DNA of 61,470 nucleotides from Candidatus Aenigmatarchaeota archaeon. GTDB taxonomy: Archaea > Aenigmatarchaeota > Aenigmatarchaeia > CG10238-14 > SCSR01. Made by a program: the position numbers and the translations under genes. Position 1 is the first letter of the stretch, and the number at the start of each line of letters is the position of its first letter. The notes below the pieces were generated by a model. That model worked only from the letters and a program-made list of their open reading frames with translations, was not told where the DNA came from and did not search any database. Positions 28,466 to 36,486 of this stretch are shown here, one piece after another. The stretch covers positions 1 to 61,470 of the forward strand of contig JAGVVV010000003.1 in the NCBI GenBank assembly GCA_018304615.1, given 5' to 3'.

Positions 28466-28500
28466 GCTTTTTATTGATTAGCAGTGAAAGAATATTCTAT

Positions 28501-28586
28501 GGGCTCATAGTCTAGTGGTAGGACGTGGCGCTTTCAAATACGGCGCATACAACGCCAGAACAGGAGTTCGATTCTCCTTGAGCCCA
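28501..28586 (+). tRNA. tRNA-Val(UAC) with a 15-nt intron at position 34/35 (28534-28548)
   Basis: Acceptor GGGCTCA/TGAGCCC, discriminator A, T-loop TTCGATT; BHB with central helix GCGC 28528-31/28543-46 and bulges TTT and ATA; spliced loop CT-TAC-AA. Confidence 0.88.
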
Positions 28587-36375: not shown

Positions 36376-36486
36376 TGGGCCGGGAGGGATTCGAACCCTC
36401 GACCTGCCGATTTCCTAGCCTCGACATATAAGTCGGCTGCATATCAACACTTGGTAGTGTTTCTAACCAGGCTAAGCTACCGGCCC
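36376..36486 (-). tRNA. tRNA-Ile(UAU) with two introns: 23/24 (21 nt, 36441-36461) and 37/38 (15 nt, 36412-36426)
   Basis: GGGCCGG/CCGGCCC acceptor, GCCGA/TCGGC anticodon stem, loop CT-TAT-A|A; both introns form bulge-helix-bulge motifs. Confidence 0.9.

Follow-up and report, generated by a model that had tools for sequence, protein, structure and literature searches.

Introns outside the canonical position in archaeal tRNA genes

Non-canonical tRNA introns, which lie outside the 37/38 bond and are flanked by a bulge-helix-bulge (BHB) motif, are known from Thermoproteales, Nanoarchaeota, ARMAN-2 and other DPANN archaea (PMC4090602, PMC4033280, PMC3239211, PMC5829648). The positions given in two reviews are 20/21, 22/23, 25/26, 29/30, 30/31, 45/46, 53/54, 56/57, 59/60 and 3/4, followed by 'etc.' (PMC4090602, PMC4033280). 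Position 34/35 is not named in the lists of these two reviews; the exact string '34/35' is not searchable, and an earlier report is possible. Literature on introns within the anticodon, or between bases 34 and 35, was searched for and nothing relevant was found. In the tRNA-Pro(CGG) of A. pernix, an anticodon-loop intron off the canonical bond has been confirmed experimentally (PMC4307357). Such introns are also an annotation problem: compared with version 1.3, tRNAscan-SE 2.0 corrected 54 mis-annotated non-canonical introns, with 4 still mis-annotated (PMC8450103).

The gene considered here lies in a 61,470-nucleotide stretch of DNA from a Candidatus Aenigmatarchaeota archaeon (the window). 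With a probability of roughly 0.9, it encodes the genome's tRNA-Val(UAC), interrupted by an intron of 15 nt that separates anticodon bases 34 and 35. The gene adds to the known non-canonical archaeal BHB introns and introduces no new mechanism.

Layout of the gene

The gene and the sequence directly upstream comprise the following elements.

28467-28479, forward strand: putative TATA-like promoter element CTTTTTATTGATT, lying some 22-34 nt before the 5' end of the mature tRNA
28501-28586, forward strand: tRNA gene, matched by the Rfam tRNA model at 58.7 bits
28501-28507 and 28579-28585, forward strand: acceptor stem GGGCTCA/TGAGCCC, from the sequence
28510-28513 and 28521-28524, forward strand: D stem GTCT/GGAC, from the sequence
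28526-28530 and 28553-28557, forward strand: anticodon stem TGGCG/CGCCA, from the sequence
28562-28566 and 28574-28578, forward strand: T stem AGGAG/CTCCT, from the sequence
28501-28533, forward strand: 5' exon, tRNA positions 1-34, last base U34 (Rfam, BHB register scan, orthologue alignment)
28534-28548, forward strand: 15-nt intron TCAAATACGGCGCAT at position 34/35, the sole BHB-flanked excision, with same-site introns in relatives
28549-28586, forward strand: 3' exon, tRNA positions 35-73, first bases A35-C36 (from the sequence; the spliced product folds as a cloverleaf)
28553-28557, forward strand: mature anticodon-stem 3' strand CGCCA, which pairs with 28526-28530 only if the BHB conformer is absent
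28586, forward strand: discriminator base A73, from the sequence; CCA is absent from the gene's 3' end

Between the two strands of the anticodon stem (28531-28552) there are 22 nt, CTTTCAAATACGGCGCATACAA, in place of the expected 7, leaving 15 nt to be removed. Refolding of the spliced sequence gives a 71-nt Val(tac) cloverleaf with the loop CTTACAA, U33 and four intact stems. The predicted mature junction joins GGCGCTT to ACAACGCC if the gene is read as Val, and GCTTTCA to ACGCC if it is read as Glu. The decoy UUC that is visible in the DNA is composed of exon base U34 (28533) and intron bases 1 and 2 (TC). Upstream, the 13-mer CTTTTTATTGATT recurs, identical and in the same place, before the orthologue of a second genome of the genus (G001), consistent with its candidacy as an archaeal promoter element.

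The bulge-helix-bulge motif and the choice of register

The BHB geometry that was scored consists of a 4-bp central helix and, on either strand, a bulge of 3 nt that is cut behind its second base. This placing of the cut, between the second and third bulge bases, is taken from PMC4307357 and fits the genome's own 37/38 introns, including those of Glu(CUC), Pro(UGG), Tyr, Ser(GCU) and others. All eight possible 15-nt excisions within 28531-28552 were scanned, and a BHB was found in only one register, with cuts at 28533/28534 and 28548/28549, that is, at position 34/35. The parts of this motif are as follows.

28526-28527, forward strand: 5' side of the outer helix, TG, forming the pairs G28527-C28550 and T28526-A28551
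28528-28531, forward strand: 5' strand of the central helix, GCGC, tRNA positions 29-32, three of them within the mature anticodon stem; pairs with 28543-28546
28532-28534, forward strand: 5' splice-site bulge TT/T, with the cut predicted after 28533 from the motif geometry
28535-28542, forward strand: inner element from the register scan, a single pair C28535-G28542 closing the 6-nt loop AAATAC
28543-28546, forward strand: 3' strand of the central helix, GCGC, intronic (register scan and covariation; used in the RNAfold minimum-energy structure)
28547-28549, forward strand: 3' splice-site bulge AT/A, with the cut predicted after 28548 from the motif geometry

All four pairs of the GCGC/GCGC central helix are G-C, and in the outer helix the base C28550 is anticodon base 36 while A28551 is position 37. 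In the 37/38 register one of four central pairs is formed and there is no inner helix, and across registers 35/36 to 38/39 the central pairs number one or two of four, with the inner helix again absent. The mature loop is CTTACAA (Val UAC) for cuts after 28532 or 28533 and CTTTCAA (Glu UUC) for cuts after 28534-28537, while the two most 5' registers yield CATACAA, which is without U33. When the 22 nt were shuffled, 1196 of 200000 trials (0.6%) had an equally good BHB in one or another of the eight registers. The initial annotation had held that no BHB forms for a 37/38 cut and that a clean one, with the loop CTTACAA, results from removal of 28534-28548; the register scan agrees on both points, and all of its coordinates proved correct.

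The helices on either side of the motif are short. There are 2 bp in the outer helix and 1 bp in the inner, and relatives have one or two outer and zero to two inner pairs, compared with three or four central and four to seven outer pairs at the genome's own 37/38 introns. The strict hBHBh' form, as Marck and Grosjean reportedly set it out in 2003, calls for flanking helices h and h' that each have 2 bp or more. The window motif is thus a borderline case at the weak end of the strict form, between strict hBHBh' and relaxed hBH/BHL, because its flanking helices are short. Splicing and refolding of all BHB candidates with ARAGORN accepted many odd products and was too permissive for ranking sites. 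A separate candidate, in which intron GGCG pairs with the 3' strand CGCC to give the loop CATACAA, was rejected: it would have A as base 33 and surplus bases following the D arm, and the relatives cannot form it.

The central helix uses positions 29-32 and the outer pairs join 27-28 with 36-37, so that formation of the BHB precludes that of the mature anticodon stem; the precursor would therefore have to take the BHB fold for cutting and refold after ligation. The minimum-energy precursor structure predicted by RNAfold (-29.1 kcal/mol) contains the GCGC/GCGC helix. The strict BHB conformer is predicted at -22.4 kcal/mol, compared with -26.4 kcal/mol for the cloverleaf with an intact anticodon stem, and being less stable it would have to be captured or induced by the enzyme. 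RNAalifold, applied to six precursors, returned the mature cloverleaf with the 28553-28557 stem and not the BHB. This outcome is expected and is neutral on the BHB, since both partners of the 5' strand covary.

Conservation among relatives

All 70 genomes of the family were searched with a covariance model of Val(UAC) (R1), and the matches were retrieved. An intron of 12-15 nt at 34/35 is present in seven genomes of four genera: the genome of the window (G000) and G001 in genus g1, G005 in g5, G015 in g15, and G072, G020 and G073 in g20. In all seven, the intron-bearing gene is the best match to the Val(UAC) model. The orthologue in G001 stands behind almost identical upstream sequence, has the loop region CTT[ACAGATGGCGCAT]ACAA and forms the same BHB; it is Val(UAC) by either cut, at 34/35 or at 37/38. 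Intronless Val(UAC) with the loop CTTACAA was seen in 12 of the 27 genera of the family, in genera g6 and g36 the Val(UAC) intron lies at the conventional 37/38 bond, and several genomes have D-arm or position-26 introns. In a phylum-wide search with the intron-bearing model, limited in sensitivity by a ceiling of 12 scored candidates per genome and by the low scores of divergent Val bodies, no 34/35 case was found outside the family.

The Val(UAC) intron state also varies inside genus g20 (L028, L029, L057, L070, L047, L062, L066). The gene lacks an intron in G074 and G078; in G071 and G075 it is interrupted in the D arm or at position 26, and in G072, G020 and G073 at 34/35. Such variation implies rapid gain and loss of tRNA introns.

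The central helices at 34/35 are GCGC/GCGC, GCTC/GGGC, ACCC/GGGT, GCCC/GGGC and GCCC/GGGT. Pairing is complete (24 of 24 cells) in the six distinct 34/35 precursors, and two of the four pairs show a compensatory double change; in slid controls, where the partner was moved by one to three columns, pairing fell to 18-50%. The outer pair G28-C36 is kept in six of six orthologues and the 27-37 pair in three of six. In this small sample of six sequences, the observed covariation was reached by 9 of 500 shuffles on most measures and by 76-94 of 500 on pair and type counts. These exon bases show covariation with the anticodon stem's 3' strand as well, and the intron therefore tracks the exon.

Ten intron-bearing Val genes were used for a test of register; the intron lies at 34/35 in six of them, at 33/34 in two and at 37/38 in the other two. 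In each of the ten, the register with 4/4 central pairs gives CTTACAA. When the 37/38 register was forced on the eight non-canonical genes, the anticodons read TTC, TAC, TAG, TAG, TAA, TAA, ATT and ATC, the single TAC being that of G001 and arising by coincidence.

The two 33/34 introns belong to another family of the same order, in which Val(UAC) has the arrangement CT/ATTATCAGGCGAA/TACAA with the central helix CGCC/GGCG (4/4 pairs).

L101, G087:C40:2105-2188: Val(UAC) gene with 33/34 intron
L103, G101:C8:473654-473742: Val(UAC) gene with 33/34 intron

The offset between 33/34 and 34/35 may represent a one-base 'sliding' of the intron or an independent gain. With these two relatives as precedent, the window gene could itself be a Val(UAC) gene that is cut one base earlier, at 33/34, or at imprecise sites; its mature product would be unchanged, because 28533 and 28548 are both T and the two cuts give identical mature sequence. 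In the 33/34 register, however, the window gene has two of four central pairs and no inner pair, compared with four central, two outer and one inner pair at 34/35, and the 33/34 cut does not yield CTTACAA in G005, G015, G072 or G020. Such a cut is very unlikely for the window gene, and the 34/35 site in a Val(UAC) gene is the reading that is followed below.

The gene might also be a decaying or unexpressed pseudogene, the real Val(UAC) or Val(GAC) lying in the unassembled tenth or so of the genome. The assembly is indeed 89% complete and the flanking helices of the BHB are weak, but all four stems of the cloverleaf are intact after splicing, and the gene, its BHB and the AT-rich element upstream are conserved in the sister species. 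Moreover, changes in the exon are matched by changes in the intron across genera, and the best matches to the Val(UAC) model in the seven 34/35 genomes are the very genes in question. Loss of function is accordingly judged highly improbable, and the gene is treated here as a functional tRNA-Val(UAC).

Valine identity and the tRNA complement of the genome

The comparative evidence, which is drawn from sequence, settles the identity of the window gene as Val, and the UUC triplet in its DNA is no anticodon. BLAST of the gene against 40 relatives led to Val tRNAs at 11 of the 13 loci inspected and to Glu at none; the other two loci hold a gene for Trp(CCA) (L007) and an isolated 3' fragment (L013). 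The spliced gene is 94% identical to the Val(UAC) of the same genus and 76-88% identical to the intronless Val(UAC) of six other genera, compared with 63-65% identity to the two Glu tRNAs of its own genome. Against the Val(UAC) covariance model it scores 82 bits. The acceptor GCTCCCA/TGGGAGC and the D arm GTCT-AGTCCGGTYAA-GGAT are common to the genome's Glu(CUC) and Glu(UUC), whereas the window gene has the acceptor GGGCTCA and an 8-nt D loop. In bacteria and yeast, A73, A35 and C36 are identity elements for ValRS, and we know of no established identity rules for archaeal ValRS. After the predicted splicing, the window gene has A73 (28586), A35 (28549) and C36 (28550).

A Glu(UUC) gene is present elsewhere in the genome. 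It was located by BLAST with the halves of Glu(CUC), having been missed by both the Rfam tRNA model and ARAGORN, and occupies 155 nt at C17:29755-29909 on the reverse strand. Its ends are 96% identical to Glu(CUC), and around CTTTCG/.../A it forms a 37/38 BHB with four central, four outer and four inner pairs. Three introns interrupt this gene, one of 20 nt near 27/28, one of 47 nt at 37/38 and a third of 13 nt within the variable region, and their removal leaves a clean 75-nt cloverleaf; Glu(UUC) is therefore supplied elsewhere than at the window locus.

Searches with Val profiles (nhmmer) revealed two Val-like genes in the assembly, the window gene and a Val(CAC) at C10:71065-71137. No intact GAC or TAC anticodon arm was found in a tRNA context in the assembly, and a scan for intact GAC, TAC and TTC anticodon arms returned only non-tRNA hairpins. 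With an assembly that is 89% complete, the failure to find further Val genes is suggestive and not proof. In 355 long ORFs, GTT, GTC and GTA together make up 81% of valine codons, and Val(CAC) is unable to read any of the three. GTT and GTC alone account for 61% of valine codons, and no tRNA-Val(GAC) gene was found in the 89% complete assembly. Val(GAC) either lies in the missing tenth or so of the genome or has been heavily disrupted; alternatively, all four GUN codons are read by Val(UAC).

The behaviour of ARAGORN at the window gene depends on its settings. By default the call is 'tRNA-??? (tcaa)', and with introns allowed it is 'Glu (ttc) i(36,15)'. Both relatives' genes that were tried, those of G001 and G005, were called correctly as Val. 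The initial annotation had described the tRNA body as Val-like, which the identity values confirm, and had proposed that the genome be checked for another Glu(UUC) and for any other Val(UAC); the first was located on C17, and none of the second was found in the assembly, 89% of the genome. Its warning that automated tools could mis-call the gene holds for ARAGORN, the one program for which a mis-call was demonstrated.

That the window gene is instead a tRNA-Glu(UUC), with a conventional 37/38 intron removed through a relaxed or unrecognised motif, is scarcely credible: the ARAGORN call with introns allowed, the formally valid cloverleaf with U33 and a 7-nt loop after 37/38 excision, and the five outer pairs provided by the anticodon stem in that register speak for it, but they are set against 1/4 central pairing without an inner helix, a body nearer to relatives' Val(UAC) (76-94%) than to the genome's own Glu tRNAs, a same-genus orthologue in G001 that is unreadable as Glu, the separate Glu(UUC) gene on C17, and a valine complement that would be left without a tRNA for 81% of its codons.

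Other tRNA genes of the same genome are disrupted or difficult to call. In the window itself, 36376-36486 on the reverse strand is a tRNA-Ile(UAU) which, by hand reading, has a 37/38 BHB (CTTA/TAGG) and, in its D arm, a second insertion; isoleucine tRNAs with the anticodon UAU have been described in ARMAN lineages without TiaS (PMC3239211). With introns allowed, ARAGORN gives Lys(ctt) at C1:6424-6511, where the BHB and an Arg(UCU)-like body point to Arg(CCU), and Ala(agc) at C17:54382-54475, where the gene is Lys(CUU) with a D-loop intron. Three tRNA-like genes (C21:6165-6259, C8:52427-52500 and C10:77111-77180) all have a GUU (Asn) anticodon loop. One of them has an A1·A72 mismatch, and another matches the tRNA model at positions 9-63 only, its acceptor stem probably being interrupted.

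Splicing machinery and proposed maturation

The only EndA gene detected in the genome encodes an alpha-type subunit (alpha4 type) of 190 aa, with N- and C-terminal endonuclease domains that score 92.9 and 66.3 bits.

L015 1474-2046, corresponding to about 75.5-76.1 kb of C10, reverse strand: EndA, with profile matches to both domains

The protein aligns end to end with the homotetrameric EndA of M. jannaschii (1A79; E = 3e-30). Enzymes of the alpha4 type are classically considered strict. The EndA of this genome has a 6-residue insertion directly before the catalytic His (VKLIRGPKSPHEH, where M. jannaschii has NID------KEH), and the ARMAN-2 enzyme is aligned through the same stretch with a one-residue gap only. 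It is at this site that the broad-specificity loops of the crenarchaeal and ARMAN-2 enzymes are located, and in DPANN archaea alpha4-type EndA with inserts accompanies heavily disrupted tRNA genes (PMC5829648). By analogy, the insertion may confer broad specificity on the EndA of this genome. The EndA gene adjoins a multi-intron tRNA-Phe gene. The ligase RtcB is also encoded (C8:21701-22969, 518 bits).

A course of maturation can be proposed from these elements. The precursor would be transcribed with the 15-nt intron between anticodon bases 34 and 35, and in it the 5' strand of the anticodon stem, together with C32, would pair with the intronic GCGC and not with the 3' strand of the stem. The resulting BHB would present the splice sites 28533/28534 and 28548/28549 in two 3-nt bulges, EndA would cut both bulges and RtcB would join the exons. 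The normal anticodon stem could then form, with the loop C-U-U-A-C-A-A. In this model cleavage is expected at exactly the two predicted bonds, the precursor is expected to switch conformation, and the spliced product would presumably be charged by ValRS.

Consequences for annotation and for intron evolution

The main value of the window gene is as an annotation trap. Reading it in the 37/38 register turns the only Val(UAC) into a second 'Glu(UUC)', and valine decoding then looks incomplete; in relatives, the forced 37/38 reading leads to Leu-type or nonsense anticodons. The tRNA complements of DPANN archaea have already been noted as incomplete (Kaneta et al. 2018). With one gene mis-registered, as for Val(UAC), and another invisible, as for Glu(UUC), estimates of DPANN tRNA complement, codon capacity and 'missing tRNAs' are therefore vulnerable.

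The locus also indicates that the anticodon stem's 5' strand, together with anticodon bases, can supply the parts of a BHB, so that the RNA folds either into the splice motif or into the mature stem. In genera for which the EndA detected is one alpha-type subunit with an insertion at the specificity-loop site, this arrangement has been retained with compensatory change. It is rather unlikely, but conceivable, that introns in or beside the Val(UAC) anticodon are a selected, recurrent feature of this DPANN order and not neutral insertions, or that they reflect 'intron sliding' between its families. If selected, the intron could shield the anticodon loop of the only GUA-reading tRNA from an integrating element or an anticodon nuclease. 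If sliding has occurred, the BHB would migrate along the anticodon, and a single shift could change the amino acid that is decoded.

Comparison with known systems

The mis-call at the window gene belongs to the same class of error as the tRNAscan-SE cases (PMC8450103), in which the 37/38 register is imposed on an intron close to the anticodon. It differs from them in that the error, here seen with ARAGORN, changes the amino-acid identity from Val to Glu.

The canonical 37/38 introns of Val(UAC) in genera g6 and g36 (G061, G063, G060, G054 and G064) concern the same tRNA in the same family, follow the same BHB logic and are 13 nt long. Their BHB sits on an intact anticodon stem with five outer pairs, whereas the BHB of the window gene excludes the anticodon stem. 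The intron of A. pernix tRNA-Pro(CGG) resembles that of the window gene in that the BHB predicts the true site and the cut falls between the second and third bulge bases (PMC4307357); its site has been confirmed by experiment, whereas that of the window gene is predicted from sequence.

With the known non-canonical BHB introns as a group, the window intron has in common its short length, its 3-4-3 BHB, its position outside 37/38 and its occurrence in a genome with many interrupted tRNA genes, as well as presumed removal by EndA and joining by RtcB. Known introns at 29/30 and 30/31 likewise build their BHB from exon bases that later belong to the mature stem. What sets the window intron apart is the bond that it interrupts, which lies inside the anticodon, between bases 34 and 35.
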